From the NCBI RefSeq assembly GCF_030684315.1, contig NC_081371.1:31119440-31183439 (forward strand): DNA of 64,000 nt. The letters are read 5' to 3'. Position numbers and translations under genes: made by a program. Position 1 is the first letter of the stretch. The number at the start of each line of letters is the position of its first letter. Of the stretch, positions 2,679-64,000 are shown piece after piece. The notes beneath the pieces are model-generated. The model was not told where the DNA came from. It saw only the letters and a list, made by a program, of their open reading frames with translations, and did no database searches. Source of the DNA: Stegostoma tigrinum. Lineage: Eukaryota.

Positions 2679-2844
2679 ACATTAGAGCACAGTGGCCTAG
2701 GTGTGCTGTCATTTCAGCTTGGATTGTGTGCTCAAGTGTCTGAGGAAGGGTCATCAGACTCAAAACGTTAACTGCTTTTTCCTTCACAGATGCTGCCAGA
2801 CCTGCTGGGCCTTTCCAGCAACTTTGTTTTTGTGTGTATGTGAG
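2679..2844 (+). mobile_element. Chimeric insert: copy of local sequence (2280-2341) joined to a PLE-terminus/hammerhead fragment
   Basis: 14-bp TSD agaagataggatga (2665-2678 and 2845-2858). CTGAGGA-a-gggtc(atca)gactc-AAAA-cgtt begins at 2740. Confidence 0.75.
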
Positions 2845-3962
2845 AGAAGATAGGATGATGTGGGCTCAATCATAATGCAACAACTGCTGAAGTCAGGCAA
2901 AATTTTGTGGCCTCCGCACCAGCAAGTTTGTAGGCAGTGTATTATGAAATCCCCTGAGTGGTCTTCTCGTTGCCCTGTCTGCAATTTTACCACATTGATT
3001 AAAAAGAAAAGTCACTTCCCACCCATTACCAGGGCAGTTGCTGCGATGACAGTCCTGCAAGACAGTCCTCAGCAGGTATAATGCTGCGACGAGTGGAGAA
3101 ACATTCACCACCAATTGACTCTTCAGGTGGCCGGGGCAAAACTCTGTCACATAAGACATCCTACTCCATAGTACTTCCCATCAAAAGTATCTCCTAATTA
3201 GTCAGTTAAAACTAGGCACTTGCATTTGCTATGCTTTTTATTCCCTTTTACAATGAATGTTCCATCTTGTATTTAGCTGGTTTAGGAATTTGATATTGCA
3301 GATGCAAAGAAATTATTTACACTGGTGCTAGATAAACTCTTGAGGGGCAATCTGGAACAAAGGGGCAAAACCTCAAATAGAGGTAAGTATCTCAGAAAAG
3401 AAGTCATATTTCACAAGAACTGTTGTGGGAACGTAAAACACGCTGTGCTAAAAAACTGGATTGTGAGTCAAAACTGAGACTGATGGGTTTTTGTTCGACA
3501 CGGAAATCAAGGAATATGGAGTAATGGTGAGTAAATATAGAGTTAAGTTATAGGGCTTGTAGCCTGCTTTTCTCTCCCAAATCTGTGCCGCAGAAGGTGT
3601 TTAAAAAATGGCGATGTTGTAACCTAAAAAAGTTATTTCATATGTTATAAATGGTAGTACAAGGATTTTATAAAACTATTAACCAAATGGAAAGTTTTAC
3701 TGTAAATGGTTACAATTTAATATTGTATTGCAAGTAATACATGTGTGTCTTTATTAACATATGACTAGATAGGGCATATTTTAAATTTTTGCCAGTACAA
3801 TATTTCCCCTAGGAAATGTCGGTCAACTAGACGATGTCCAGAGTTTGACCATGAGCAGTACAATAAATACCAAGAGGAAAAACAGAGTCCAAAAAAAATC
3901 TCAGAATAAATGCACTAGCAAGGAACTTACTTCTTACAGTATATGACATACTGTTTACTTAC

Positions 3963-4097
3963 AGTCACGTCCTGAAACTGCAGTCGAATTGTCGGTCCAG
4001 AGGGCTGTGACCTGTTGCTGATTTCTAATATGGTTCTCAGCAGCACACCTAGCAAGCTGTCTACAAGCATGTCCACCTCCTCCGAAGCAGTTATTTC
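3963..4097 (-). CDS. DOCK4: DOCK4 exon M (135 nt): [45 protein letters not shown]
   Basis: Acceptor attcag|GAA, donor ACT|gtaagt; phase 0 to 0. Confidence 0.93.
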
Positions 4098-7000
4098 CTG
4101 AATGATAATAAGATAATTGCAACAGTTGCCAAATAAATTTACATACAATTCACAGCACAGAAACAGGCCACTGAGGCAAAAAGAGAGTCTTGTCAATATT
4201 TATTTTGACAAGGCCACATTTCAAGAAGTTGGTGCAAGCTAGGTTTGTATCTGAAACGATCAATAAAACTGCACACTTGCTGAATGTTGAACAGGCTTAG
4301 CAAACCTAGCTGCAAAATCCCAATTGCATTGTGTAGTTTTCAAAACATTGTTTACAATATCATTGTGTCTAAGATGTACTTGAGCTAATGACTTTCCTGT
4401 TAATAAATGACACATACAATAAGAGACTAGACTTTGATGGACACAAAATATAAATGGGGTCCTTTTCCTTCTCCTATGATAAATATATATTCAGCCACAT
4501 AATGAACAACAGTATCAGCAAACACGATTTAAACACAACTTATTTGCGGAAATGGGTTAGTCTAAAATAAATTGGTGAACTTTCAATTAGAAGAAAGATT
4601 TTTAACGTTCTGGTTGTTTCTGTTCTGGTCAACAAAGCAGGTCAAACCCTAATTAAGAAATTTCATCACAAAAATGGTATCGTTTTATTTTCATTAATTA
4701 GTGCAGTTCCCCCCACCCCTAAAAAAATTCACAGCATAGGTATCCTGAATATCAGTTGTTAACTGTTTTTGTTCATAATTTTGATCACACAACCTGCCAA
4801 AGAGTCTGAGGTGTGGAGGAAGCTCACTATTTCCATACCTTTGTTACACTAGGCAGTGGTTTTGGAGTACCCCATAAGACCATCTGGGAGAAAGGTGTTG
4901 ATGAACATGCAGTTTCCACCATTTGTCATGGTCGAACCATTGAAAGTCAAAACCTTGACTCCAACTTGGAATTGCAGGTTTGCTCCAGGTCTTTTTCATC
5001 CAGAAGGCTGCCCGAAATGCCAAGTTGTATCTATGATAACCCTGTGGTGCATCCTGAAAAACTCCACAAATAGTGAAGTTTCAGAATGCCCTGCCACCCA
5101 GAGCAAGAGTTGTTTGTAAGGGACGGATGGAGGCTCCATTCCTGAAAGGCCCTTCTGGAAACTAGCCAAAATGACCTGATACTGTAGGATCCTGACTTAG
5201 CTTGGAAATAGTTCAATAACTACAGCAATTCTCATCAAAGCAGCCATGGATTTTTGAGATCCAGTTTAGTAATGGTTAGCCTGAAATAAAACCTTGCTTG
5301 AAAGATCATTGTTTCCTATTCAACAGCCTGGACTCAATAATTACGTAGGTCAGTAAATTTATTGCATTAGTCATCTGATTAATACTTAATTACATAACAT
5401 ACAGCAACAGAGAAAACAGCAACCAGTTGAGGCCAACACCAAAATAAACTTCAATGTCACTTCAATCATAAGATATCAGCACAGTTTACAGTGCTTTATT
5501 CTGAATTTAATAAAAATGATTGACCATTGTTTAGGGTATTGCATTTGTGTATTTCTTTGCTGGGGTGAGAACACAGAGATTTTGGGTAGGCAATTAAGTC
5601 ACATGCGGAAGGAAGCAGATGCAGTGGGAATGGATTTTCTGATGGTGAACGAAGGGAACAATACAAAGTTGCATTGAGTGAAAAGGGAACAAAGGATAAT
5701 AGTCATTATTTCTAAAGTCAATACATCAGTCAGCTTGTTCCGGACTCAATCCAGACATGAAGGATAATTGGAGAACCTATACACTGCAAATCAGAGACAA
5801 CAATGGATTATTGACATACATTGACTGGGAGGTATTGTGGGATTTATAATTTAAGGCAATGAAATTGTTCAGCCTTGACAGCGCGTTACAGATCATAACT
5901 GAAATTAAGCTAAATGTAAGAGGGAAAAATTTGGAAGAACAAATAACAAGTGAATGACTGGTTCATTAATTAACTTTAGTTGCAGTTAATTGCCTTAGAG
6001 AATTTGGTGAAAATTCATTGGTTGGTAAGTGATTAAATCATCAGTGAGAGGATAAAGAAATCATTGATTACAATTTAGCTAATTGTCCCAAAGGCATGTT
6101 AATCCATGTCCAATGAACCAAGTCGAGACATAAACTGATGAACTCCTTCAAAAGTCAATATATGGAGATTTCAAGACAGATTCTTCAAGGGTATTTGTTC
6201 ATTTATCTAAACTATTTAGAAATTATCCAGGATGGAAAAGATTGTCCAACAGGCAGTTAAAATATTGGGGGAGCTTTAAATGTGCAGGGTGCAAGACAAA
6301 ACAGTAATGGATTTGAATAATACCTGAACTGTGCTAAAGTATGATAATCATTAGGAGAGTTTAAGCTTAAGGTGGGAGGGTCCAAAACTAGAGGGCAGAG
6401 ATTTAAGGTGAGGGGAGGAAGATTTAAGTAGGACTTGAGGGGTGGGTGACATTTTCACACAGAGGTGGTATGTATACAGAATGAACTGCCTGAGAGAGTG
6501 GTAGATGCAGGTACAGTCACAACATGTAAAAGACATTTGGACTGGTACATCAATAGAAAAGGTTCAGAGGGATATAGGGCAAACACAGGCAACAGAATTA
6601 GTTTGGTTAGAAAACCTGTTCAGCATTCATGAGTTGGACTGCCTGGTCTGTTCCTGCAATGTATGACTCTGACTCTATAAGAAGAACCAAGCCAACTCAG
6701 AGTCGATATAGAATCAGCTGTGCCAAAATGCTCAGATGAAGTGATCTGATTTTCTCAAAACTACACATGCAAGAGATTTTTAGGTGAGGATGGCATCAGG
6801 CAAAAATAAAACAAATAGGTAACATTCAAGGAAACTGAATATACACTTAAGGGATATAGAGACAGTCAAGGGAATGGAATTGCCAAGACTTTTCTAAAGG
6901 GTGCTGGAGTAGATTTGAAAGGCAATTTGGCTTCGCTGTACCAGTCACTGGGAAAGTCATAATGGTTAATAAAGTTCTACAATTTTTAAGTAGTAACCAG

Positions 7001-10000
7001 TGATTGCCACTTCAGTTTTCCTGATGTTTAAATGGAAAAAAGTGCAACTAAGCCTTTCAGGTTCTACCTGGAGGACAAGGCTTAAACTAACCAAAAGGAT
7101 ACTTAACACAAAAATAATTTTAAAATGTAAACATTACTGAGAATTGCCATTTCAAAGTCTGAGAGCTGTTTGCTTGAAAAGTTTAATCTCTAATCTGATC
7201 CTGTCTCTCTGAAATACTCACAGAGCTGTCCTTCTTGATCAGACAAAACGTTGTGCTAAGGATGCGTGCACACATGGTTAGATCCTTCTGTTCTTGCAAA
7301 TGCATGTGGAGATGGTGTAGAACCACAGGTAGGAGAATGCAGCGAGAATCTGGAATAAGATGGTCAACACAAAATGCATCGGTCTCAATGATGGTCATGA
7401 TAGTATTGCAGCTGAATACCTCAACTATGCCCCGAGTGTTTTATCTGAACTCTTGCTTTGTACTGGTACCAAATTTAGCCACACCTCATGAAAAGTCAAG
7501 TTATTTTGTCTTTTCTTACTGACTTTATTGGTATGATTTCTTCCCAGGTTGTTTGAAGAAAGACACAATGTAAAGGAATACATGCAATGGCTAAATTACT
7601 CCTGATGATCACCCGTTCTAATTATTGTAATACAGCCATATATAATATAAAACAGTCCAGAATCTAGACCTGTATGTTTAAAGAGCCCAGAATACAATGT
7701 CAATATTTACATTCTTAATGAGGGACAACACCAAACTAAACCAAAGGGGAAAATTGTTTCATGTCTGGCATAACACCAAGGATTTAATTTTACTCTCCTC
7801 TAACTGCTACCATTTGTCTGAAATCTCAAACCTCTGCTCAGCATAGAAGGAGTGGTACACTCTTGAAGGAACTGTACTTCAAGACAGAAATTAAACCATG
7901 GTCTAACTTCATCTAAGATGTATATAAAAGGTCCCATGACACTATTCTGAAGAGGAGTGGCGAAGATTTCCTGTGACCAGATCAGTACTTATCCCTCAAA
8001 CAACATCACTAAAAACAGGTTACCTGGCCATTGTGTCATTGTTTTGTATGGGAGATTGCTGCACTCATGATTGGTAGACATATATTCTTCTAACAACAGT
8101 GATGACTTTTTGCAAATACTTCATTGGCTGTCAAGCAATCAGGATGACCAAAATGAAGTGCTTTATAACCTATAATTCTCATTTAGACATAACTTAGATC
8201 AGGAGTATTTTGATGAATTTGTAGGATTTAAATAACCAGCCATTAGAGAAGAAGCTGTCTGAGAATGCTGCCTTCCTTCATACAGACTGCTTAATTTTAA
8301 TAAGCTTGCTATGCTATAAAAATCCAGATATTTTAAGGACTGGGAATTTTGGTCTCCAGAAAATACACTTCCACACTTCAGGAAACATGCAAAATGCTGG
8401 GCTTCATTTCAGTTGTAACAGCGATCTTCGGTCAGGTGATTTACTAATTTTACAATTTTAGTGACAGAAATTAACAAGCAGTACACTTCACGTGGGTAAG
8501 AATACTGTTGTGCCGAAAGCTGTCATAAGATGTAACACCTAATCTAATGGAATCCAGTTTGATGCTATTTATAACTATTCATGAATAACTAAGAGTAGCT
8601 ATGCATAAAATAACGAACAAAATCTAACATTAGACTATCCATCTGCATTTCAAGTTTTAACCCAAAAGCCTTGAATGGAATAAAATATCAATCGAGAAGT
8701 ATTACTTGAAGGTCCCTAGAATTTCTGAAACTTCAGTGAAGGGGTCTTATTTTTCTATAAGTTGGAGCTCTTCTGCTTTTCAAATGCAAGTGTTTAACCT
8801 CTGCATTGGATCCTCCCACCTTTTACATAATGCTGTATCATTTTATGTTTGTTTTTTAAGATTCCCTACAGTGTGGAAACAGGCCCTATTTCTTAATTAT
8901 TCATTTAAGATTCCTCTATGAAGTCTATCTAGTCAATTTATTTGTCATATTCTATATTCATGTCTAGAAATGTTTTTCATCTCACCCTTATATTCAATCT
9001 TAAATGAATCCTTAATTAAAAATTTATGAGTACAGATGTTTCTTTTCTCTTTCTTTATAAGTGTTGCGTTATCCTGGTTTCTGATGGTAATCATGTGACA
9101 AGCATTTTTGCTGTCCTTGGCAGTTGAATGGTTCTTCTGAGCCAGAAGGCCCAGGTTCAAGTCCCACATGCAGCAGAGGTGTTTAATAATATCTCTGAGC
9201 AGGTTGATTAGAAAATATAGACAGTTGGATAGTTCTAGCATTCCTCCTGTAATTAATGTTTCACTGTCAAGCCCAGGTATGACGTTGCCATACATCTTTC
9301 CAGGCCTTCTTTACAGTAATTAAACAATTGTTTACACCTTCTTACTGCTTGTACTGAGTACTAACATGTGCCATCTCCACATCTCCTTCTAGGTATTTCT
9401 CTTTCTTTCCAGTTGTGATGGAATTTTTCATGGTTACCTGCTGCATTAATCTTTATCTTTGAATGATTTTAATATCAACATGTGACCTAATTCGTTATAC
9501 CTATTTCTGAATTAAATTTCTCAATTGTCTTAGGCCTAACCATCTTCAGCTGCTTCATTAGTGATTCTTTTTCCATCATGACATTAGAAGCGGGGACATT
9601 CACAAATCACAGCACAATGTTCATCACTGTTCATGGTTCCTCAGATACTAAAGCAGTCCATGTCCAAATGCAACAAGACCTAGGCAATATCCTGACTTGG
9701 GCTGAAAAGCGGAAAGTAACATTCACGCCACACAAATGTCAGGCAATAGCCATCTCCAATAAAAAATAATCTAACCATTGCCCCTTGACCATAAACTGAA
9801 CTGGGCTAGCCTTATAAGTACAATGGCTACAACAACAAGTTCAAAGTCCAGGAATGCTGCAGCGAATAACTCATCTCCTGACTCTCCAAAACCTGTCCAC
9901 TATCTACTGGGCTCAAGTGAGGAGTGTTATTCAATATTATGCACTTACCTGGATAAGTAAACCTCCAATAATACTCAAGAAACCCATCGTTATCCAGGAC

Positions 10001-13000
10001 AAAGTGGCCCATTTGAATGGCACCACATCCACAAACATCCATTCTGTTCACCATTGACGCTGTGTGTACCGTCTATAAGATGCACTGCAGAACTTCCCCA
10101 GCACAGACAGACAGTTTTTTTTCAAGCCTAGAACCACTAACATCAAGGAGGAAATGGGCAGCAGATATAAGTGAATATTACATCCTGCAAGTTCCCCACC
10201 GAGCCACCAACCATCCTGATTTGGAAATGTATCATTGTTCCTTCAGTGCCATTGGGTCAAAATCCTCTATTATTTTTCCTAAATTGCATTGTTGGTCTAC
10301 CGACAGCATATAGACTGGTGCGGTTCAAGGAGGCAGTTCATTACCACCACTTGCTCAAGGGCAATTATGGACAGGTAATAAACGGTAGCCAAGCCAACAA
10401 TGTCCACACCTCAAGTGAATAAAAGAACACCTACATTTCTAATCAGGTACAGTTATATGAGGTTGTGAAAGGTGATTAATTCTAAAACTAGCACTTACAT
10501 TCCAAACAATTGAATACTTCTCTCAACAGACCTCTAGGAATCAAAGTTCTCCCTTCTCCTCTCTAAATATAATATTATTATTGAATAAAATAAAATCACC
10601 ATATTGCAGATGCTGGACATGTGAAATTAAACAAACACTGGAGATATTTGGTCAGTCTAGTAGCATCTGTAGACAAAACAGTTCATGTTTTGGCTCGAAT
10701 GTGACTTTCCTTTAGAATAGAACATCACTCTCCACAGATGCTGCCAGACCTAAAGATTATTCAATATATCATCATTTTTGATTTAGCTAATTATCTCCAA
10801 ATGTAGGCATCACCACAGCACTATGAGAAAATAGACACTGGAATTTACATAGTTAATAAATATAAGCAGAGTTACAAAAACAGAAGTTGCTAGAAAAACT
10901 CAGCAGATTTAACAGAAACTCTGGAGAGAAAGCAGAGTTATTGTTTCAGATCCAATGACCCTTCTTCAGAATGCAAAACATTCACGTTATCCTTTGTGAA
11001 TCCTTCTTGAATTATTTTTGTTTAACTATCAGCACATTAACATATCTGTTCCCAGTTCAAGCTCTGCTGGATTTTGAACTTACTTTATCAGAGCATTTAT
11101 ACAGGCTCTAATTTCGGCTGACTGAAATACACAAGGACATTTTCACCAATTATCACTGTAGCAGACACAGTGCTTGAAACAACAATTTCATTGGGCACTG
11201 CACTGGAAAGCAGAATATTTTTACATTATCACCAACAACAGATATTGCTGGAAAAGCTCAGCAGATCTAGCAGCATCTGTGAAGAGAAGTCAGAGTTAAC
11301 ATTTCAAGTCCAGTAACCCTCTCTTAGGAATTCAGGCGCACAGTTCTCCGAAAGTGGATTCACAGGTAGACAGGGCAGTGAAGAAGGCTTTCGGCACACT
11401 GGCCTTCATCTGTCAGGGTATTGACTATTGAAGTTGGGAAGTTATAATGCAGTTCTACATGATGTTGGTGAGGCTGCACTTGGAGTATTGTTCAGTTTTG
11501 GTCACCTTGCCATAAGAAGGATGTTATTAAACTGGAAACAGTGCAGAAGAAATTTACAAGGATGTTGCCACGACTCAAGGGACTGACTTAGACAGGGAGG
11601 TTGGATAGGCAAGGACATTCTTCTTCAGAGTAGAGGAGACTGAAGTTGGGGGGGGGGGTGGTGTCTTATAGAAGTGTATAAAATCATGAGTGGCAAGGAT
11701 AGGGTGAAAGCACTCAGTCTTTTTTCCAAAATTGGGGAATTGAGGACTAGAGTCAGATTCAAATTCAGGTAAGAGGGGAAAGAATACATGGGAAACTGAG
11801 GGCAAACTCTTTTACACAGAAGGTGGTATACTTATGGAATCAGCTGCCAGCTGAAGTAGTTGATGTGGGTACATTAACAACATTCAAAAAACAATTGGAC
11901 AAATACATGAACAGAAAAGATTTAGAAGGATATGCACCAAATACAGGGAAATAAGATTAGAGTGGAATGATTAGTTTGGGCCAAAGGGCCTGTCTCCATG
12001 CTGTGGGACTCTATGACTCTATAAAGCTGACACTTTTACAGCAAGAAATCAAATAGGTTTTAAAAGACCTTTTAAGGGGCAGTAAATTCGTAATACAGTT
12101 TACTTGTTTTGAGCTGATGGAGTGTTTTATCACTTTAATGTTTCAAGCATAGCCATTAACTATTGCAGACCATAAAACACATAGGTGCAAAAATGTGTTA
12201 ATGTAGCATCAGCTGAAGTGGTACTGCTCAAGCTGGTGTCAGAAAGCACTATTGTAGGACTCTACCTGCAATGCCCCAGCGTAGGTTTTCCTATTTTATC
12301 TCTTAAAGTACTTCAACAGGGTTGTGCAGGTAGCAGCCTACAGTGCCAGTTGCTCCTGACAATGAACATTCTCTGCATTTAACTACTATTTTAATGAACT
12401 ACTCCTCTCTATGACCACTACTCATTCCAACGTCCTAAGCACCCACTGCATTATTTAAGAAAATTAGTAGGCTGAGCTCAACCTTGTTCTCAAATTTGTC
12501 AGACAATGTATGTTCTAACATTACTGGCTCAACTAAGATTATTTATAACCTTTTGCATATTAATTTCCATCACAATTACTCAATCTTTGTTGTTGCATAA
12601 TAATGAAATAATCGTACAGGAAAAATTTTGTTTCAGTCCAAATGTCATTAGAATGTCAACATTAACCCATTCATAAATTCAAAACAATCATAATGTCAAA
12701 ATCTCCATTCACAGTCACATGCAACTTGTGTGCATTTGGTAAATATGTAGCCGCTGCCCACATATGAGTCCAGGATAGTAAGCAGGGAATATAACATGGG
12801 GCCAGTAAGTGAAGGAGTTCAATGGTTTGAAATGATTTGAAATAAACAGGCATGGAATTCTGCCAGCCTCCTGTAATCTGGAAAATAAAAATGGTAAACC
12901 CTGCTGCATTTCTGGAGCAGTGGACAAGTGTGAACTAAGTTGAGATTGAAGTGGAAATTGACAAGGCGGCAGACAAGTACAGCAGATTTACTGCATATTG

Positions 13001-55000: not shown

Positions 55001-58000
55001 TGTGTGCCATTCACAAGCTACTGACAAATCTAGCACATTGATGGATAATGACACTGCAAGTAAATGAACAAGATTTTATTATTTAATTTACAAGCCAGAT
55101 ATAAAACAAAAGCCATATTGCAGAGGTTTTGAAAGCAGGAGGTCCGTATCTGTTATGAGTACAAATAGTATGATGTCAATAGACCAGGATCTGTCAACAC
55201 TGGACCCTCATTAAAGATATTGATGCCAAATATGCTGCACTAAAATAAAACGCTTTTGTTTAAGTTGCAGATTATTATTGTTTATTTAATTCTGTAATAT
55301 AACATAAAAGATACAAAATCAACTTTGCGTTATAAGAAGTTCCAATTCTGTTTAGTTTACAAAAAAAACTGAAAAGAAAGAACATGTATTATTAATATTA
55401 CTTGGTATTAGTAGTAACACAACAAACACTATTTGGCATTTTAATTGCCCACTGCTAACAGTTCTATCTTCAACAGCCCGATCCCTGATCTGGACTTTTG
55501 TCCCTAAACCTTTCCATCTTTTTGTTCTGCTTTCAAAGCCTACTGCTTCTTGTGGCGATCTGTTCTTATGTCTTCATATGGCTTACATCTCCACATGATT
55601 TAATGTGATCAAGCAAAATTTGACTGTGACATTTTACTACTAAAGGGCTCTATCAGAAAGTTTTCCTAAAATCAGATGCAACGTACTATTTTCTCTCTTC
55701 CAAAGACAGTATCATCCCATGAAGATACATTATAGGCAAATGAAAATAGTTTGATAAATGGGGGAGCGATACATGCCCATAGGGACAATGCAGAACACGA
55801 AAGCCAAAAATATCTGAAATTATATCTGTAACAGAAACCCCATAAAATTGTCACAGCTACTTTAGTTAATGCAATTGTGATTTCTTGACTTAAATACAAC
55901 ATATAAATTCCAATAACTGAAGAAAAAGACTACAGACTAATGGGATGATTGGCCCTGGATTCCCCTCTACCAATGGCCAAAAGGGATAAATGTACACATA
56001 AAACTAAAGTCATTAAAGAATGAAACAGCTAAAAACAGGATTAATATTTTTATTGCAGAAACTACAACCTTTGGTCCTCTGTAGATTGGTAGCATGAGAC
56101 AGATGGAGGAACTATTATTTGCTTTGAGGAAAATTAGGTCATCAGCAGATAATCATTTTCATGTAAGTGTTTTCCAATTAACTTTTGCTCAAAGAAATAA
56201 TTTAGGTTAAACTTAGTTATCTATTTTCTGCAGTTGTCACATGTGAATCAGTACAACAATTGAGGTAAGAGGCCAATGCTGAGCCATTAGAAATGTCAAT
56301 TCTTACAACATTGGCAGGCTTTCCCAAACTATGTTACTACCAATAATTTACTTTGAAAGGTCAGCGTCATCACTGTTGTTCTGTACACAACTGCAAAGCA
56401 GTACTTAAGGGTACAACATCTCCACAAATGTATTCCTCAATAGTCAACACAAGTACCAACGTGAGTAATATATTCGACAGTAACTTCCATTTATATAACA
56501 ACATCAAAAACTTTCCAAAGGGAGCTCACAGATGTATATCATAGAAAAATGGATGAATGCTGGAAGAGAGACACTAGGAAGGGTGGTCAAAAGTTTAACA
56601 ACAGAATGAAATCTAAGAAAACAGAGAGATGGGGAAATAGAAATTTGTGGAGGAATTTTCAGCGATGGTGGCCACTAATGGTGCAATGGAATGAGCAACA
56701 TATCCAGATTCAAAATGTAGTAGAATTTGGGCAATGAAGATATGGTTTACAAATAGGGAGGGACAAGGATAATGAAATGATTTAAACACAAAAAGGGGAA
56801 CAACAGTTTCATTTGTAATGCCTTCAACTCAGTAGTATGTCACAATGAATTTCTGAGTACTGTTCCCAAACAAAAATGGATGGAATATTTAACGTAGAGC
56901 CATTTCAGGAAGGATTCATGCACTTGGTCAAAGGAATAAGTTTCACAAAGCATTATAAAGGAATAAGTGGAGGAAGATGATGAACTGGAGAGGCAGAGAG
57001 GATTAAGACCCCTTGAACCGGCATTACTCATCCATAAGGTTCTGGCTGATCTTTGAACTTAATACCACTTTTCTGATCCATCCCTACATGCCTTAATTCC
57101 TTAGGCTCCGAAGATCTATAACTCAGCTCTGAATATAATTATCAATTGAGCAATCCGAATTAATTGTCCTCTTGTCCTGCGGACAATGCCCCAGAGTTCC
57201 AAAACACCCCTCAGAGAAACCAATTCTTAGCACTTACCTTTTCAGGCTTTCATGGGATCTTCTACGTATCAGTGAGATCACTATCACTTCTGATTCTTCT
57301 GAACTCCACACAAAATAAACCCAATGACCTAATTCTCTCATCACAGGACAACTCCCTCATCACATTCCAATGAACCTTTGATACTTCATCTCTTGTCCAA
57401 TTATATCCCTGTGTAAGCTCAGGGAGCAAAATGGTACGCGGTATTCCAGAAATAGCCTCACCAAAACATGGTTAGCAAAATTGGTTAGCACTGAACATAA
57501 CTGCTCCAGAATAAAATCTGCAAAGAGAGAACCTTTTTCCCTATGGAATTAAACTTTTGTTTGCTTCAGAGCTAAAGCCAAAGCAAAACTAATGGCTTAA
57601 TATGTTCACACTACCTGTCATAAAGTCAAAAGTACAAACATCATCTCCATTAAAACCACTGGAATCTACCAGGCACTTGACTACAGTCACATCTCTTCTT
57701 GGAACTGATGCAATTAGGTCTTTGTTCCAGAATGACTTTCTGACAACTTAAGAAAATCTCATAGCACAAACTCTTGTCATTGGACCTCTCTTTTTAAAAC
57801 AATGCAAATTCCAACAAAAAAAAATCATGGGCAAAGTACATTTTAAGATCACCAACATTCTGACAGGTCTGGTTCAATCTCAGACAGTGTGCCAGGAGTG
57901 GGCTAGAGTGGAGAATACAGAATGGAGTTTGTGGCATGGACAAAAGCAAATAATTTCAGTCCTTCCGATATTTAGCTGGAAGAAATTTTCAACCTGAGGA

Positions 58001-60558
58001 ACTGTGGAACTGAGAGCAATGTAGCTCAACAAAAGTTTGCAGAACTTTCAATGGGATAGCATATAGATAGGAAATGTTCAGCTAAGCTCAGGCTTATGGA
58101 TGCCAGATTATGAAATGTTGGAGTACTGCCAGTACCTGACAAATGACGTGACAAAAGATTTTCAAACAGTTCTGACTTCACACTGTTCTTGCTCCGAACT
58201 GAAAGTGGCACTAACTGAGCAAACCTGACAGAAGGTATTTTGCTTGTGATTTTTTTTTTAAAAACTCATTATCACAGGACTTCTGCATTTTGGACCAAGT
58301 GTTAAATCAACACAAGGCTTCAATTAACAAAATAGAAGTTAATGGAGAAACACAGCAGGTCTGGCAGCACCTGTGGGAGGAAAGCAGAGTTAACCTTTTG
58401 GGTCCAGAGACCCTTCTTCAGAACTCAGTTGCTGCCAGACCAGCTGAATTTCTCCAGCAATTTGTTTTTTTTTCAGACTTCCAGCATCCACAGTTCTTTG
58501 TTTTTTGTTTGGTTCAAGAATTTAATACATTTTCCAGTAAAAAGCACCCCACAGCTCTTCCAATATTAATTTTTCACTCAACACCTCTACATCAAGGCAT
58601 TCACTGTGGTGCTTTGGTTTGTACTGAACACATAATAAAATGCTATATACATAGAAGTTTTCTGTTTTTCTCCTACTTGGTGAAGTTTAAATTAAAAAGG
58701 TAATTTTATTCTGCAGACTCAAAAGATTCATTTTGAGGCACTATTCAAGCTCATGAGCGAGTGAAATAAGTTAATTTTAGTTTGCATTAGCCCTTATGGC
58801 ACCTGTATTATTATTCAAAGCACAGTTACAATTAAAGCTGTTCTTTAAAACCTCCCCGGAGAAAGGAAAATCCAGTCAGTAACTTTACCAGATATAAAGG
58901 CCAAGTTAGAAATAATGACATAATGACATAGCCAATTATGTGAGTCAACACTTATGCCAGTAACATTACACAGACATAACGAGATTGGAATAGACATCCT
59001 GTGACCAAAGTGCATGTTTTTGTGAATTTATAAATGGAGAATGTAAATTTTAAGGTTTCCTAATCGTTGATATTACTCATTTAATTTGGTACATTTAGAA
59101 TGACTGACATTTGAAGGCAAAATAAATCTCAAACTGTGAAGCTTGCAAGACTTTACTGAATTAACATCATGTCATTAAAATATGCAGTGAAAAGGATGTT
59201 TTGAAAGGGACCTAGCATATAAAACACAACTTCTGAACATCTCTCTTCAATTCTAAATTGTCAAATCTCATTGCCTTGAACCCAAACTAGCTCAATTCTA
59301 TTCTATCTGCCCCAAAAGGCAGAGCAGAGATAAGCCTGAAGTCTCACTCTTTCCAACACACATGCACAGTGGCAGCAGTGTACCATTTACAAGACACATT
59401 GCAGCAACTCACTAAGGCTATTTTAATGGTGTCTTTCAAATTAGCACCCTCAATACTTGGAAGGGTAGTCAGTATAGACCAAACCTTTCAAGTTCCCTTC
59501 CAAGTTACATTCCAACCTTACTAAGAACTATTTCACTGTCACTGGTTCCACAGCCTTGAACTTCCCTCCCAGCCATACTGTGTGTGCTCATATACCACAA
59601 GGACTGCAGGAATTCAAGGAGGTAGCAAATCACCACATTTTCCCGGGCAATTAGGGATGGGCCCTAAACGCTGACCTTGCCACCGAAGCCCGTATTTTAC
59701 AAACAGGCACTACAAAAGAAAATCACAACATCCTGAAAGCAATATATTCTTCAACAGAAAACATATGAAGAAAAGACAGTCTATTTACACAGCACTTTTT
59801 CATTCCTGGATTGCTCCCAGGTGCTTTACAGCCTATGAACTAATTTGGAAGTATGGTTACTGTTGTAATATGGGAAACACACCATCATGCCATCCATTGT
59901 GTACACAGCAATGTTCCCAAAACATTGGTGAATCTTTTTTTGTTTTAAAGAGGACATTGGTTGAAGGATAAATATTTGTCAGTATACCTCTGTTCTGTAA
60001 AGAGCGCCACGTAATCTTTAATATCCACCTGAAAGGGCAGATCTGAAAAATGGGAAATTTACATTGACAGCTTCCCTCTGTAATGTACTGAAGTGTCAAT
60101 GCTGAGGATGTGCTGAAGGATCAAAAGGCAAAACCTTCAAACTGTCACTGAATAGTATTAAAATGCTAGCTTTTCAATGCCTTACTGTATACATGGTAGA
60201 AATAATTAAAAACTTTAAACCAAGTATGAACACTTGAAGTAAACAATTTTGTATTATCTTTGTCATATTTTGTGTAGCATAAAATACCCTGGAACAAAGC
60301 ATATTGTTTTAAAATGCAGATAAATTATCTCGAAGACCTCGTGATTGACGAAAGCCAATTTGTGGAGACAGAAAATGAAGTGCAACAATTCCCAGAATTG
60401 ATGTATAACAGCTTCATTGCTGCCCAACCTACCTGGCATTATTATATCTGAAAAGCCCAATTTTCTGGTGATAGCCACACCTCTTGTGAACAATACCGGG
60501 TACTCTCTCCGGATCTGATCAATATCTCCATGTAGCAGCTGTAGTGCAACTGACAAAC
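3963..60558 (-). CDS. DOCK4: DOCK4 (dedicator of cytokinesis 4, Rac GEF), internal part: 13 coding exons; gene extends beyond both window edges
   Basis: The spliced exons give an uninterrupted frame of 1667 nt (2 nt + 555 codons). Every intron is GT-AG and phases match. The peptide matches recalled DOCK4 motifs ([75 protein letters not shown]) better than DOCK3. Confidence 0.93.
6350..6680 (+). mobile_element. CR1 LINE 3' end
   Basis: aactagagggcagagatttaaggtgagggg...ttttcacacagaggtggta...tail gtatgactctgactctat. Confidence 0.75.
7222..7349 (-). CDS. DOCK4: DOCK4 exon L (128 nt): (D)[42 protein letters not shown]
   Basis: Acceptor ttccag|AT, donor TCT|gtgagt; phase 1 to 0. Confidence 0.95.
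7850..8170 (+). mobile_element. Deu-domain SINE remnant (SacSINE1/AmnSINE1-like)
   Basis: aaaggtcccatgacactatt, ttatccctcaaacaacatcactaaaa and atacttcattggctgt resemble the recalled Deu domain and tail. Confidence 0.65.
9528..10425 (+). mobile_element. Second non-LTR LINE family (CR1/L2 group), 5'-truncated
   Basis: [10 protein letters not shown] and [24 protein letters not shown] remnants. Distinctive tail caccac..ctcaagggcaatta.gga..gg.aataaa. Confidence 0.75.
10604..10752. mobile_element. Decayed inverted pair of PLE-terminus fragments
   Basis: Minus arm (gcagatgctgga...gcatctgt) followed by plus arm (ctctccacagatgctgccagacc). Confidence 0.5.
10876..10972 (-). mobile_element. PLE-terminus fragment with hammerhead-like core
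   Basis: Minus strand reads CTGAAGA-a-gggtc(attg)gatct-GAAA-caat-aactctgctttctctcc. Confidence 0.7.
11236..11330 (-). mobile_element. PLE-terminus fragment with degenerate hammerhead core
   Basis: Minus strand reads agggttactggactt-GAAA-tgtt-aactctg...acagatgctgctagatctgctgagcttttccagca. Confidence 0.65.
11332..12022 (+). mobile_element. CR1 LINE, 5'-truncated
   Basis: [23 protein letters not shown] and LVRLHLEYC remnants; tail ctctatgactctat. Confidence 0.85.
16606..16855 (-). mobile_element. Tandem pair of short tRNA-derived SINE copies; same family as a plus-strand copy at about 9130-9220
   Basis: Minus strand reads ggcctgggttcaagtcccacctgctcc..ctctgaacaggttgattagaaa, compared with ggcccaggttcaagtcccacatgc..ctctgagcaggttgattagaaa at 9148-9214. 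Confidence 0.6.
17300..18715 (+). mobile_element. Two adjacent CR1 LINE 3' fragments (about 17300-17825 and 17845-18715)
   Basis: [26 protein letters not shown] and VRPHLEYCV remnants; two CR1 tails. Confidence 0.8.
18775..18967 (-). CDS. DOCK4: DOCK4 exon K (193 nt): [64 protein letters not shown]
   Basis: Acceptor caccag|GCT, donor CTG|gtaaga; phase 0 to 1. Confidence 0.95.
19180..19650 (+). mobile_element. Highly decayed PLE 3' end (endonuclease C-terminus plus pyrimidine-rich UTR)
   Basis: Remnant peptides [24 protein letters not shown] and LNTKFNNCR resemble the C-terminus of the element at 33016-33780. Confidence 0.5.
19835..20160 (-). mobile_element. CR1 LINE 3' end
   Basis: Reverse-complement tail (ataggagca...ccattcagcccatcgagtctgctcc) and RLFFSEG remnant. 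Confidence 0.7.
20840..21485 (-). mobile_element. Second LINE family, 3' part
   Basis: Reverse complement of the same tail (tttattgctcattcttagttgcctttgagaaggtg) and body as 9528-10425. Confidence 0.7.
22449..22504. repeat. 24-bp tandem repeat, 2.3 copies (cctgcacYggtctcYctgccKgtt)
   Basis: Units start at 22449, 22473 and 22497. Confidence 0.8.
22638..22864 (-). mobile_element. Solo LTR (227 bp)
   Basis: TG...CA termini, 5-bp flanks gcctc / gcatc (4 of 5 identical), and a decayed poly(A)-signal-like aaatata near the minus-strand 3' end. Confidence 0.6.
24620..24838. mobile_element. Fold-back element made of two inverted PLE-type termini (second family), each with a degenerate hammerhead
   Basis: Arms 24620-24703 and 24721-24804 are imperfect reverse complements. 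Cores are ctaacaa-a-ggag(tggcg)ctcc-GAAA-gctt (plus strand) and ctgacca-a-ggagc(agt)gctcc-AAAA-gctt (minus strand). Confidence 0.75.
24880..25050 (-). CDS. DOCK4: DOCK4 exon J (171 nt): [57 protein letters not shown]
   Basis: Acceptor ttatag|GCA, donor CAG|gtcagc; phase 0 to 0. Confidence 0.94.
25490..25700 (+). mobile_element. Unclassified SINE-like repeat
   Basis: B-box-like ttcaattcc followed by ctcagggttaaaccac; weakly similar to 2510-2655. Confidence 0.35.
27341..27422 (-). CDS. DOCK4: DOCK4 exon I (82 nt): [27 protein letters not shown]
   Basis: Acceptor ttacag|G, donor AGG|gtaagt; phase 2 to 0. Confidence 0.94.
27950..28265 (-). mobile_element. tRNA-derived SINE sharing its 3' tail with the second LINE family
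   Basis: Minus strand has a B-box-like ggttcaaatcc and ends with gggcaattagggatgggcaataaatgctggcc, the same tail as 9528, 49750 and 59360. Confidence 0.65.
29236..29336 (-). CDS. DOCK4: DOCK4 exon H (101 nt): [33 protein letters not shown](R)
   Basis: Acceptor ttgcag|GTT, donor CAG|gtactg; phase 0 to 2. Confidence 0.95.
29447..29549 (-). mobile_element. Decayed PLE-terminus fragment
   Basis: ctggagaaactcaac...cagcatctg..gagagaaacagagtt..tttcaagtccag..gactc; same family as 10876 and 11236. Confidence 0.55.
29907..29990 (-). CDS. DOCK4: DOCK4 exon G (84 nt): [28 protein letters not shown]
   Basis: Acceptor ttctag|TTT, donor TTG|gtgagt; phase 0 to 0; preceded by a 99-nt intron. Confidence 0.95.
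30090..30187 (-). CDS. DOCK4: DOCK4 exon F (98 nt): (G)[32 protein letters not shown]
   Basis: Acceptor tttcag|GA, donor AAG|gtagaa; phase 1 to 0. Confidence 0.95.
31344..31472 (+). mobile_element. Short PLE-terminus insert starting exactly at a hammerhead core
   Basis: CTGAAGA-a-gggt(ctag)gccc-GAAA-catc. TSD aggaaactg(t/c)c at 31333-31343 and 31473-31483. Confidence 0.8.
32334..32487 (-). CDS. DOCK4: DOCK4 exon E (154 nt): [51 protein letters not shown]; end of DHR-1
   Basis: Acceptor ttgcag|TGT, donor ATG|gtagga; phase 0 to 1; contains the conserved CSTKLTQN motif. Confidence 0.95.
33016..33780 (-). mobile_element. Decayed PLE (Neptune-like) 3' part: GIY-YIG remnant plus terminal repeat with degenerate hammerhead
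   Basis: Minus-strand translation gives [40 protein letters not shown] and [24 protein letters not shown]. Terminal motif ctaaaga-agggtcactggatct-gaaa near 33085-33112. Confidence 0.75.
33825..34140 (+). mobile_element. Two tandem PLE terminal-repeat fragments, inverted relative to 33016-33780
   Basis: Repeated tail actctgctttct..gatgctgccag..ttctccag..tttctgtttttg at about 33865-33930 and 34078-34140, with degenerate ctgaag...gaaac cores. Confidence 0.65.
34953..35059 (-). CDS. DOCK4: DOCK4 exon D (107 nt): (T)[35 protein letters not shown]
   Basis: Acceptor ttccag|CA, donor AAG|gtattt; phase 1 to 0. Not in the ORF track; read by hand. Confidence 0.95.
36880..37215 (+). mobile_element. Possible highly decayed PIF/Harbinger transposase remnant
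   Basis: Fragments [38 protein letters not shown] and LCNLAQ occur in the order expected for Harbinger DDE nucleases. Similarity is weak. Confidence 0.35.
37808..37955 (+). mobile_element. Short PLE-terminus insert with a perfect 54-bp 5' inversion (palindrome)
   Basis: Arms 37808-37861 and 37864-37917 are exact reverse complements around a 2-nt loop. TSD tccaaactaacggg at 37795-37808 and 37956-37969. Same family as 31344. Confidence 0.85.
38592..38754 (-). CDS. DOCK4: DOCK4 exon C (163 nt): [54 protein letters not shown]
   Basis: Acceptor tcatag|GAT, donor CCA|gtaagc; phase 0 to 1. Confidence 0.95.
39230..41090 (+). mobile_element. Very old CR1 LINE remnant
   Basis: Decayed RT-region phrases (ggaaattacagactt, gagctttttgaggacttgaca, gatattgatagattgagtgaat) in CR1 order. 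Confidence 0.6.
41140..42410 (+). mobile_element. CR1 LINE, 5'-truncated, RT core
   Basis: [38 protein letters not shown] and [15 protein letters not shown]; CR1 tail. Confidence 0.85.
42411..43290 (-). mobile_element. Old minus-strand CR1 interrupted by a plus-strand CR1 3' fragment (about 42608-42940)
   Basis: Minus-strand CR1 phrases on both sides of a plus-strand ttcttcacccagagagtggtgag...tatgttccta segment. Confidence 0.6.
43602..43726 (-). CDS. DOCK4: DOCK4 exon B (125 nt): [41 protein letters not shown]; start of DHR-1/C2 domain
   Basis: Acceptor ccag|GT, donor AAG|gtaaat; phase 1 to 0. Confidence 0.95.
45814..45942 (-). mobile_element. Short PLE-terminus insert with inverted arm
   Basis: 16-bp TSD tggatcattcaggctg (45798-45813 and 45943-45958). 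Inverted arms at about 45851-45882 and 45907-45938. Confidence 0.85.
46300..47945 (-). mobile_element. CR1 LINE, 5'-truncated, RT domain with frameshifts
   Basis: ORF-track fragments [43 protein letters not shown] and [17 protein letters not shown]. Confidence 0.9.
49061..49431 (+). mobile_element. PLE terminal repeat (pyrimidine-rich UTR plus hammerhead core) preceded by an inverted short arm
   Basis: CTGAAGA-a-gggt(ccct)accc-GAAA-caac at 49340-49367. The arm at 49061-49135 is the reverse complement of the tail. Confidence 0.7.
49750..51529 (+). mobile_element. Second LINE family, internally deleted copy (endonuclease start, RT remnant and tail)
   Basis: [31 protein letters not shown] and [15 protein letters not shown] remnants; tail caaagataaatagggatgtacaataaa. 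Confidence 0.7.
51530..51865 (+). mobile_element. HE1-type V-SINE (tRNA head, V domain, CR1-like tail), full length
   Basis: A box tggctcagcgg, B box ggttcaattcc, V-domain tgtggagtttgcacatt...gtgggtttc...ggtttcc..ccacagtccaaaga, tail gggccgaatgacctgtttccacactgt. Confidence 0.85.
53955..54692 (+). mobile_element. CR1 LINE 3' fragment
   Basis: [11 protein letters not shown] and LVRPDLEY remnants, aggaatttcttctctcagagggtt, CR1 tail. Confidence 0.75.
57000..57470 (-). mobile_element. Decayed CR1 3' fragment
   Basis: Reverse-complement CR1 phrases (ccctcagagaaaccaattct, gtattccagaaatagcctcacca). Confidence 0.55.
58334..58507. mobile_element. Inverted pair of PLE-terminus fragments with a minus-strand hammerhead-like core
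   Basis: Minus strand reads gagtt-CTGAAGA-a-gggtc(tctg)gaccc-AAAA-ggtt-aactc (about 58386-58426), followed by a plus-strand tail gctgccagacc..ttctccagca. Confidence 0.7.
59360..59700 (+). mobile_element. Second LINE family 3' end
   Basis: ttcaaggagg.agc...caccac...gggcaattagggatggg tail. Confidence 0.65.
59770..60115 (-). mobile_element. Deu-domain SINE remnant
   Basis: Reverse complement resembles 7850-8170 (gctttacagcc.atgaa.ta, ggttgaaggataaatatt, atccacctgaaagggcaga). Confidence 0.6.
60433..60558 (-). CDS. DOCK4: DOCK4 exon A (126 nt): (G)[41 protein letters not shown](G)
   Basis: Acceptor ttttttaaag|GT, donor CAG|gtaggt; phase 1 to 1. Confidence 0.93.
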
Positions 60559-61291
60559 CTTTAAAAAAGAAAAGATACATAACATTGAAATATTCCAGAG
60601 GTTGATTTACTCCTTGGAAGAAAATCTTCCACAATAAAACAGTTCAGTGAAAAAAGCACTCTAGAACCTAATGGGCTCACAATGATTTGAGAAAAACAAA
60701 TGGTTCTGCTTGGATTATGCTTCATTTAAGATTATTCTGCACTGGAAATTGGCAGGAGTGGTACATTTAAATTGTACACTTCAATCAGGTACTTATCGCA
60801 TTCCAACATACTACATGTTGTGTACTGCTTCTCTGGTTCCTGATTATGAGGTTAATGACAATTCTTGAGTTTAACTCCTGTTTACAAAACTTAATTACTG
60901 CATTTGATTTTGCTATGAATTATTTACAGTCTCAATTACATTCAAGCTGCACCACGATAGCCACATTTTTTATCTAATCCAATCACATGTCAACAGTGCT
61001 ACTGAAGCACATCACTGTTGATTAAATAAAAATGAGTTCATTTGACGTGAAAGGACCACACCAGACTAAGATGTGCAAGATTTCCCATGAATGGCCATCC
61101 TGCACTGCAATCTCATAGAAGTATTAACTAATATTGCAGAAGCGCAATGAAATACTCCATGTTACAATGAGTCAATTAACATTTTCCAATTTTTTAAATC
61201 TATTCAAAATAACCATGTAATGGCACTTTGGGTAGTGAGCTAGCAATCTGCCCTATGCTGTCCAAGATTTGGTTTAGGTTCTAAGTGCCTC

Positions 61292-61685
61292 ATAGAGTCA
61301 TACAGCACGGCAACAGATCCTTTGCTCCTACTAGTCCTGGCTGAACATAATCCCAAACTAAACTACCCACCAGCCTGCTCCTGGCCCATATCCCTCCAAA
61401 CATTTCCCATTCATGTACTTATCCAAATATCTTTTAAACATTGTAACTGTGCCCACATCCACCACTTCCTCAGGAAATTCATTCCACACACGAACCACAT
61501 TCAAAAAAACGTTGCTCCTCATGTCTTTTATAAATCTCTCTCCTCTCACCTTGAAAATATGACCCTGGGTCTTGAATTCCCCCAACCTAGGGAAAAGACA
61601 CCTACCATTAACCCTATCTATACCCCTCATAGTTTGATAAACTTCAATTAGTTCACCTCTCAACCTCCTAATCTGCAGTGAAAAT
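61292..61685 (-). mobile_element. CR1 LINE 3' end
   Basis: ORF 61358-61702 RRLRGELIEVYQTMRGIDRV...VVRVWNEFPEEVV. Confidence 0.85.
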
Positions 61686-62405
61686 GTGAAATGCTTTTGC
61701 ATTTAAAGTTTGTATGACATGCAAGTCCACTGCACAAAACTGACATTGTCAAATCAATATACACTTATTCAAGAAATTTAAAGACTTTGCCCAAACAAAA
61801 ATCCATTGAATCAAAGAATAGTTGAAAGTTGAAATATAACCATAAATCAATAATAGAAAAACTGAAACAGAAACAAGTACAACACTGTAACAGTTAAATT
61901 CTGCAGTGATCCATATGTAACTTCAAATTATGCAACAGCTACCAGGTAGACAATTCTAACACAAAGTTGGAGCGTTCCTTTTAATCAAAAAGGAGAAGGA
62001 TGGAGACGCAAGTTTCAACAATAACTGATAAATTTGCAGAATTCTAACCTATAAAATTCAGGTACCTGTTCCACCAGAAAAAAGATAAACCAGTCACTAA
62101 AATGGGAATATATATTTTGACGTGACAGTACAATATTAAAGAATACTACAAAATGAGATTAAACTAAAAATTTAGAATAGATTATTGCAACACAGATCCA
62201 AACATCAGACAATACTCATTTCACAATCGTGGACTCTGGCCACTACAGTAGCGATTAACAAATTTCAATTGGAATGAGTCTGAATATTTATACCAGCTAA
62301 TTTGAATTTAATTAAGATAGTTTTCAACTCTGAATTATGAAGTTTTGTACTTTACTTCAAGTACACAATTTATATTGTAAGCCTTTAAAAAGTGCAAACA
62401 ATTGA

Positions 62406-63814
62406 AAGTGAAGATAGAAGAGGATGAAATAATGGTCTCCTTTGACGTAACAGCCCTGTTCACATCCATCAACATCAACCTGGCCAAAGAAACACTGACT
62501 ACACTATTAGAAGAACCGAAGACACATACACCAGACACCACCAACCCCATCAGCAAGGACAACATCATCAAGCTAGTGGACCTATGCCTCACCACCCACT
62601 TCACTTTCAATAACAAAACCTACAGACAAACCGACGGTACACCCATGGGATCTCCGATGTCAGGGTTCTTAGCAGAGGCAGTAATGCAGAGACTCGAACT
62701 AACAGGTCTGCCAATCATCCAACCCAAACTTTGGGTCCGCTATGTGTATGACACCTTTGTCATCACTAAACAAAACAAATTAGAGGAAACCTTCAAGACC
62801 ATCAATAATACCCTTTACTGGCATAACATTCACAAAAGAGGAGGAAAACAACAACAAACTGCCATTCCTAGATGTCACAGTAGAGCGAACAGCCAATGGG
62901 GGACTTCATACCAGCGTCTACAGGAAAACAACACATACGGACCAAATACTGAACTACAGGAGCAACCATCCCAACACCCACAAACGAAGCTGCATTAGAA
63001 CATTATTCCAACCAGCCACCACATACTGCAGCACAAAGGAACTACGCAGAGCAGAGGAAAATCACCTATACAGCGTATTCAGAAAGAATGGGTACCCAAT
63101 GAACACAGTCCACCGATTTCTCAGCAATAAACCCAAACAAACAGACAAAACATGCCCAGAAACCATAACCACTCTCCCCTACATCAAAGACATTTCTGAA
63201 ATGACTGCCAGACTACTCGGACCCCTTGGCATCAGGGTAACCCACAAACCCACCAACACACTAAAACAGCAGCTAATGAACTTAAAAAACCCTACACAGA
63301 CAACAAGCAAAACGAACGTCATCTACAAAATACCTTGCAGGAACTGTGACAAATACTACATTGGACAAACAGGCAGAAAGCTAGCCACCAGGATACATGA
63401 ACATCAACTAGCCACAAAAAAACATGACCCACTATCGCTAGTATCCGTACATACAGATGAGGAAGGACACCACTTTGATTGAGACATCCATCCTAGGACG
63501 AGCCAAAGAGAGACACACATGAGATGGCATTCCAACCGGAACTCCATCAACAAACACATTGATTTGGAGCCCATCTACCACCCTCTGAGAAAAAGAACAG
63601 GAAATGACATCACCAACGAAGGAAATGACATCACCAACTCAAGGAAGCCTAAACAGATCAATAGAAAGGGACATAACACTAGCGCTTCATCGGAGGCTCA
63701 CTGATGATGTTACCTAGAATGGTGACAAAACGTCTGAAAACGAACCTTCCCGCTCAGCGAGCAAACTCACATCCAGAACCTCAATCTGAGCTACAAATCT
63801 TCTCAAAACTCGCT
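62406..63814 (+). mobile_element. Penelope-like retroelement (RT + GIY-YIG endonuclease; probably Poseidon-type), 5'-truncated, inactivated
   Basis: RT motifs MVSFDVTALFTSI, GTPMGSPMS, RYVYDTF (YVDD changed to YVYD) and KLPFLDV. GIY-YIG motif VIYKIPCRNCDKYYIGQTGRKLATRIHEH. Frameshift near 62815 and stop at 63480-63482. Perfect 15-bp TSD agtgcaaacaattga at 62391-62405 and 63815-63829. Confidence 0.93.
63698..63737 (+). ncRNA. Minimal type-I hammerhead ribozyme motif in the PLE 3' terminal repeat; core G12 mutated to A
   Basis: tca-CTGATGA-t-gttacc(tagaat)ggtgac-AAAA-cgtc-tga. Stem I tca/tga, stem II 6 bp, palindromic ACGU stem III, GUC triplet. GAAA appears as AAAA at 63727. Confidence 0.75.
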
Positions 63815-64000
63815 AGTGCAAACAATTGATAAAACATTGTTTTATTTTTCATTTATCCAACAGTTTGGTTTGTGTAAAGTTCTGAGAGTCTATTTAAAAT
63901 ATAGTGAAATTTACAAACAGATCAGCGACACATTTCTTCCCAAGAGGCTAGTAGAACTAGTTGATAAACACTGAGTAATTGAATGGAACATTCTATTAAT

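Follow-up and report, generated by a model that had tools for sequence, protein, structure and literature searches.

Broken hammerhead motifs in DOCK4 introns of the zebra shark: ends of Penelope-like elements and a candidate footprint of cleavage

What are the broken hammerhead motifs scattered through the introns of a shark DOCK4 gene, and do any of their relatives still cut RNA? The locus is a stretch of 64,000 nucleotides of Stegostoma tigrinum (NC_081371.1 of assembly GCF_030684315.1, positions 31,119,440-31,183,439 of the forward strand), hereafter the window. An earlier reading of its letters, here called the sequence-only reading, saw in it decayed minimal hammerhead ribozymes (min-HHRs) from the termini of Penelope-like elements (PLEs). 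The answer that we consider probable is that these are decayed ends of PLEs, left when the element's own reverse transcriptase (RT) starts copying within the terminal repeat and reaches the 5' end of its RNA template, and that in the youngest family, A1, the end of that template was often cut by the hammerhead. That the motifs are byproducts of PLEs is very probable; hammerhead cleavage in vivo in A1, argued from the ends of genomic copies, is moderately so.

Pseudo-LTRs of five families

A remnant of the expected architecture, made of CUGANGA, stem II, GAAA, a palindrome and an NUH triplet, is recognisable at 11 of the 11 places cited by the sequence-only reading, whose motifs are thus real. 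They are the pseudo-long terminal repeat (pLTR) ends of five PLE families or subfamilies, A1, A2, B, C and D, where at least three had been announced. Their proposed origin in PLE termini is borne out by linkage to open reading frames (ORFs) for RT and/or a GIY-YIG endonuclease (EN). The A1 copy at 31344 has relatives 96-98% identical to it, upstream of which lies an ORF that encodes an RT (YIDD), a Cys-rich linker and a GIY-YIG EN. The RT is a weak match to Pfam RVT_1, with an E-value of 2.6e-5 that falls below the cut-off; the EN motifs were read directly, since neither the EN fragment nor the N-terminal fragment matched a Pfam family. An A1 unit, pLTR followed by ORF, is about 3.75 kb long: four of the 30 loci fetched at the N-terminal part of the ORF reach the 5' pLTR, and start at about 0 (L279), +39 (L268) and +65 (two loci). 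Throughout, +1 is the C of CUGANGA, and the predicted cut of family A, GUC|A, lies between +28 and +29. The main ORF of A1 overlaps the pLTR; besides, an ATG within the catalytic core opens a frame of 13 codons (+4..+45), which recalls the anole PLE, where the ORF starts at stem II.

For families B and C, the ORF matches are to EN only. The upstream EN of C is Poseidon-like and lies in the window at 63081-63587; that of B survives as remnants of 42-56% identity upstream of several copies, for example at 33389-33743. An EN match stands upstream in 22 of 185 profile hits of family B, several of these matches being coincidental, and most B copies are short. In family D, one of 20 loci (L138) has the pLTR followed by an RT ORF, with both RT and EN matches. 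The Cys-rich linker between RT and EN is present in A1 and absent in C; because a Zn-finger-like CxxC linker at this place is the criterion of the Neptune clade in PMC8557442, we provisionally call A1, A2, B and D Neptune-like and C Poseidon-like.

The family consensus sequences keep both the CUGANGA and GAAA core and a stem II that pairs through different sequences in different families, which is the outcome favourable to the sequence-only reading in the consensus test that it had proposed. Stem II has 5-6 pairs, and its pairing is kept among A, B, C and D (169 intact cores). The NUH triplet is GUC in A1, A2 and C, GUU in B and CUU in D; the G10.1-C11.1 pair and an unpaired base after A9 are present in the consensus cores, as seen in intact cores and folds; and stem III is palindromic and loop-less, ACGU in A, B and C and AGCU in D. 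Stem I has 4 base pairs in B and D, 3 in C and only 2 in A1, against the 4-5 of the min-HHR criterion; a min-HHR of D. virilis likewise has a stem I of 2 base pairs (PMC4209133). Cofolding of dimers was uninformative, the active form not being the minimum-energy structure.

How decayed is the system? A strict pattern for intact cores finds nothing in the window, so that the claim of a lesion in every copy here holds. The same pattern finds 50 cores in a sample of 812,100 bp (five DOCK-gene blocks, the window among them, and five stretches of 30 kb) and none in each of five shuffles. Judged by eye, a CpG-type change is part of most lesions; several copies have additional changes of other types, such as CTGA to CTAA, or a deletion in the copy at 34050. 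The curated hammerhead models of Rfam, whose detection minimal forms escape, have no match in the window at E<=10, and a looser pattern descriptor has 53 matches in 662,100 bp, where shuffled sequence yields 1, 1 and 2.

Profile hits are intact in 32 of 60 cases for A1, 5 of 51 for A2 and 2 of 88 for B: the window holds only broken copies by chance, and decay is local in a largely intact A1 system. The very high copy number that had been anticipated is supported by exact whole-genome counts, for which reversed-pattern controls gave zero: one exact 30-mer of the intact A1 core has 90,316 copies, the A1 downstream 39-mer 70,878, an intact 40-mer of C 6,347 and the C downstream 23-mer 10,657. Remnants of A or B type number 199 in 812 kb; were the sample representative, the whole genome would hold about 0.8 million. 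The largest vertebrate counts of min-HHRs in the available text of the founding survey (PMC4209133) are about 4,000 in the coelacanth and 9,000 in Xenopus tropicalis, so that the single A1 variant, with its stem I of 2 base pairs, is about ten times more numerous than the larger of them.

Two 3' ends, one of each per pair

The structure of insertions was studied on 153 A1 arms anchored on +52..+90, an anchor that is neutral with respect to the 5' end. The 812 kb supplied 37 of these arms; the other 116, by-catch among them, were gathered near 98 anchor matches, out of the first 100 listed, at the tip of one contig. Their 3' ends cluster at +90..+101 and at +119..+128, about 35 nt apart, and those of family C at +78..+84 and +108..+116. 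Head-to-head A1 pairs combine one short and one long 3' end in 26 of 27 cases, the remaining pair ending at +114 and +128. A single target-site duplication (TSD) flanks the whole structure, with 11-17 bp in six insertions of the window. Paired arms are mostly of the same 5' class; in long pairs, arm lengths vary freely. Because of the short/long rule and of these independent arm lengths, we favour twin priming on the sense RNA, the two arms being copied from two internal sites.

The same data bear on the mobilisation proposed by the sequence-only reading, in which non-coding termini of 100-170 nt would be mobilised like short interspersed nuclear elements (SINEs) or retrozymes. In its full form, this model has independent, non-autonomous units amplified via circular RNA. 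Animal retrozymes do derive from PLE pLTRs (bioRxiv 10.64898/2026.07.22.740005), the shortness of most B copies suits such units, and rare tandems of the post-cut fragment occur. However, short and long A1 copies are not split by sequence (80 arms, +52..+125, permutation p=0.28, a test of low power on 74 nt and for A1 only), full-length elements and short copies begin at the same places and use the same two 3' priming sites, and the 3' ends are fixed and accompanied by TSDs rather than circularly permuted. Copies are dispersed or head-to-head; tandem units that each hold a complete type I hammerhead were not seen among them, and the tandems that were observed lack the ribozyme core. This part of the earlier proposal is consequently very improbable; rather than a separate SINE or retrozyme lineage, the short units appear to be PLE insertions of the usual sort, for which priming took place within the pLTR.

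Still less credit goes to the idea that the short units are solo pLTRs, produced when the two pLTRs of a full element recombined: this would account for single units with a TSD that start at the pLTR edge, such as 31344, but direct-repeat recombination leaves head-to-head fold-backs, ragged 5' ends and two 3' ends unexplained.

The tandems are worth describing in their own right. Two loci, L331 (G000:C1:6335856-6335981) and L355 (G000:C1:4383740-4384120), are head-to-tail tandems of exactly +29..+127 joined via one C, which suggests a jump between templates at the end of the RNA, or else a small circle. The start of such a tandem junction (TCC) was seen in 8 of the first 100 listed junction matches. 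At L334, a pLTR piece that starts at +29 follows sequence of the same orientation from the 5' region of the ORF of its own element, a pattern that resembles a template jump of RT at the cut site.

The 5' ends of A1 and the predicted cut

If A1 RNA is cut by its ribozyme, copies that run off the cut end should start at +29. The 5' ends of the 153 arms are bimodal around the ribozyme: 33 lie beyond -690, 47 in -690..-21, none in -20..-6, 39 in -5..+9, one in +10..+28, and 33 in +29..+49. Once two internal deletions are dropped, the comparison is between no end in +10..+28 and 30 ends in +29..+47 (binomial p about 1e-9); two further calls among the 39 at the ribozyme edge continue upstream, as judged by eye. 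The pile of ends at the ribozyme 5' edge recurs in A2 and B. A check for a G derived from a cap found a G upstream of 13 of the 26 ends in -5..+1, many of them coming from the partner arm. The fold-backs of the window at 37808 and 45813 belong to the cut class, which would comprise about 15,000 A1 arms genome-wide (32 of 153, scaled to at least 70,878 arms).

Genome-wide, 1,274 loci match a junction pattern for a start at +29, and 925 for a start at +28. Sorted by eye, the first 30 of the former comprise 12 clean ends at +29 without overlap, 13 microhomology overlaps (+29 to +32) and 5 mutated intact copies; the clean ends often follow one or two extra G, where the search pattern favoured G/T. 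The first 23 of the latter comprise 13 mutated copies that still have core sequence, and 10 ends at +29 with an extra C, which can be attributed to the TSD, the partner arm, a tandem joint or an insert.

Several observations weigh against cleavage. Before hand sorting, the crude junction counts are not sharp, and 3 of the 23 cases at +28 are possibly true ends there. More than half of the A1 arms (80 of 153) extend upstream through a ribozyme that was not cut, and 116 of the 153 belong to the initial 3.75 Mb of a single contig. Stem I of A1 is short, and the predicted fold of the A1 monomer is an inactive hairpin that pairs +1..+6 with +25..+30 and has its base at +29/+30. No edge at the cut site appears in the other families: in C (48 arms), ends fall at +12, +21 (three), +28 (two), +43 and +44, that is, six inside the ribozyme and two past the cut expected at +35; in A2 (75 arms), 11 ends fall in +10..+27 and 3 at +29/+30, with a filter that is blind past +36; in B (78 arms), the 5' ends show no gap. 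This is a failed replication, though the older families are noisier. Finally, in the available text of PMC11167929, hammerhead cleavage is dispensable for insertion in vitro, and RNA-seq ends are reported absent from the cut site.

Two details of family C belong here. A pile of its ends at -83 was rejected as an artefact of walking at a short duplication in the reference. In three copies (L297, L312 and L313), the start at +21 or +28 follows one shared A-rich sequence, possibly the 3' end of another element inserted into the ribozyme.

The hairpin makes RT pausing a real rival, since it ends at +30. In that explanation the PLE origin is the same but the ribozyme is passive: RT would pause at the base of the A1 hairpin, and the ends would then be joined by the AGCT palindrome or by microhomology. 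The hairpin is the minimum-energy fold of A1, at about -11.4 kcal/mol; that of A2 is weaker, at -8.2, and the A2 edge is absent; and 25 of the 33 cut-class arms sit in head-to-head pairs, whose junctions are ambiguous. PLEs without hammerheads proliferate well, and hammerheads may parasitise PLEs (Craig 2021, PMC8557442). Yet stalling predicts ends at +31 or beyond, and 12 of the 30 sorted loci end cleanly at +29; none of the sorted cases requires an end before +28; as junctions, three palindromes within +13..+27 (CTAG, GGCC and ACGT) are unused; and the hairpin of family C is equally stable (-12.0 kcal/mol), yet that family has no edge. We regard passive pausing as possible but unlikely. The sole evidence for ribozyme activity, the footprint of A1 5' ends, suggests cleavage in vivo.

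A joint proposal that we rate slightly above an even chance is that, in the germ line, the A1 min-HHR cuts the retrotransposition template and that a dimer with RT and endonuclease activity primes both strands of a single staggered cut, with two internal sites on one RNA as its start points. The explanation called probable at the outset has further inferred components. A protein dimer would nick both target strands and prime both sites on one RNA. Units of 60-130 nt would arise by run-off when the primed site is in the 5' pLTR, and long truncated copies when it is in the 3' pLTR. The RNA would start at the ribozyme 5' edge, probably the transcription start, when uncut, and at +29 when cut. Cutting would require a partner ribozyme and/or the PLE protein, in which case monomers dispersed in introns would be inert; such monomers do look inert in their host introns. 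Intact cores in the DOCK-gene blocks are 20 in sense and 18 in antisense, and this lack of orientation bias in DOCK introns makes it probable that dispersed monomers do not cut host pre-mRNA.

The window, known systems and what A1 may record

The host gene, DOCK4, is on the minus strand; its 11 exons identified in the window span 3963..60559, the first at 60559-60431 and the last at 4097-3963. DOCK paralogues could not be separated by a search of PDB and were resolved by protein search, in which shark DOCK4 records, one of them from the zebra shark, match one exon at 100% identity. All the cited motifs are intronic, and none overlaps a mapped exon. An iterated profile search of the window gives 12 matches of A or B type and two D arms, and the family C copy lies at 63701; the profile adds to the earlier inventory the copies at 10601-10726, 29424-29548 and 33819-33932 and the inverted arm at 58426-58502.

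Family B accounts for the copies starting at 2738, 10601, 10870, 11217, 29424, 33007, 33819, 34038 and 58320. Motif inspection and profile agree on pLTRs at 2738..2850 (plus strand, core from 2740, GAAA changed to AAAA), 10870..10974 (minus, with a lesioned palindrome and NUH triplet), 11217..11335 (minus, with lesions in core and palindrome) and 34038..34147 (plus, with a deletion in the core and stem II), and on a head-to-head pair at 58320..58502 with a lesioned core on its minus arm. The profile adds minus-strand remnants at 10601..10726, weakly B-like with a score of 26, and at 29424..29548. The head-to-head insertion at 33007..33932 joins a minus arm, formed by the GIY-YIG remnant at 33389-33743 and a pLTR, to a plus-arm pLTR at 33819-33932.

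The other families contribute fewer insertions, and all TSDs listed here have one mismatch. Family D is a head-to-head pLTR pair at 24613..24845, with AGCU palindromes, both cores lesioned and a TSD of 12 bp. The A1 copy at 31344..31471 is a young solo pLTR on the plus strand that starts at the first core base, with ACGT changed to ACAT and a TSD of 11 bp. Two A1 fold-backs lack any ribozyme core: 37808..37953 has arms +39..+92 and +36..+125 and a TSD of 15 bp, and 45813..45947 has arms +38..+125 and +56..+97 and a TSD of 17 bp. Within the latter, 45844-45945 matches the mir-607 model of Rfam (E 3.9e-5, below the cut-off); A1 fold-back hairpins could be misannotated as microRNAs. The A2 insertion at 49060..49435 comprises a short inverted arm, a pyrimidine-rich 3' untranslated region and a pLTR with its core at 49340, with a TSD of 14 bp. 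Family C is a 5'-truncated, Poseidon-like PLE on the plus strand at 62950..63816, of approximate left boundary, with the GIY-YIG remnant at 63081-63587 and the hammerhead at 63701, where GAAA has become AAAA.

Near its start, the window also holds a perfect inverted repeat of 124 nt (360-483 and 1999-2122, 1,515 nt apart) and an imperfect inverted match of 51 nt (1965-2015 with 2336-2386), which are either a recent rearrangement or an assembly artefact. A direct duplication of 69 nt (93%, 2273-2341 and 2672-2740) ends right at the first family B copy, and a family C 3' end, on the minus strand, apparently lies just to its left, as judged by eye.

Neither the motifs themselves nor their occurrence within introns of DOCK4 is unusual: min-HHRs in the pLTRs of EN-bearing PLEs are a known kind. 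Those of PMC4209133 share the type I core, the loop-less palindromic stem III, the extra base after A9, the G10.1-C11.1 pair and the short stem I, and most of them, too, are scattered one by one and associated with truncated PLEs. The available text of that survey reports low activity in vitro and states that evidence in vivo is lacking; the 5'-end edge of A1 is candidate evidence of that sort. The dimer model for PLE hammerheads is restated in PMC6155905 and PMC6765202, and PMC8557442 calls their function unclear. Inverted-pLTR insertions of EN-bearing PLEs (Arkhipova 2013, PMC3846280; Craig 2021, PMC8557442) have, as here, head-to-head pLTRs, a tail restricted to one end, TSDs and solo pLTRs. 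The optional tail of 30-40 nt, direct or inverted pLTRs and TSDs, and an ORF for RT and GIY-YIG beside the pLTR are found among the present families. PMC3846280 invokes self-priming on an antisense template; our data would be better accounted for by twin priming on sense RNA.

The anole Poseidon element PAc (Frangieh 2024, PMC11167929) also has two internal RT start sites, which bound a tail of 30-40 nt, with both strands extended, a protein-assisted hammerhead in the pLTR and a predicted protein dimer. It probably differs from the Neptune-like A1, A2, B and D in its clade, and the pairing of one site per strand and the cut-site edge seen here are absent from the available text of its account. 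Non-LTR retrozymes (bioRxiv 10.64898/2026.07.22.740005) resemble the short units in being ORF-less, hammerhead-bearing and pLTR-derived, and occur in the only chondrichthyan sampled there; they are defined by tandem repeats with complete hammerheads in at least two consecutive units, whereas the window copies are dispersed or head-to-head. A search of the literature by title and abstract found no paper on shark PLE hammerheads or genomic cut footprints, though subscription papers, supplements and Repbase or Dfam may cover the families.

A near-intact young family whose insertions end on the predicted cut site would offer an identified substrate and the enzyme that goes with it, together with a prediction at the level of single bases, for PLE hammerhead cutting in vivo, and the rule of one site per strand gives a testable account of the head-to-head insertions typical of PLEs. 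If the cleavage proposed for A1 is real, about 15,000 insertion arms would record the cut of its ribozyme at base resolution, alongside more than 90,000 identical intact cores.

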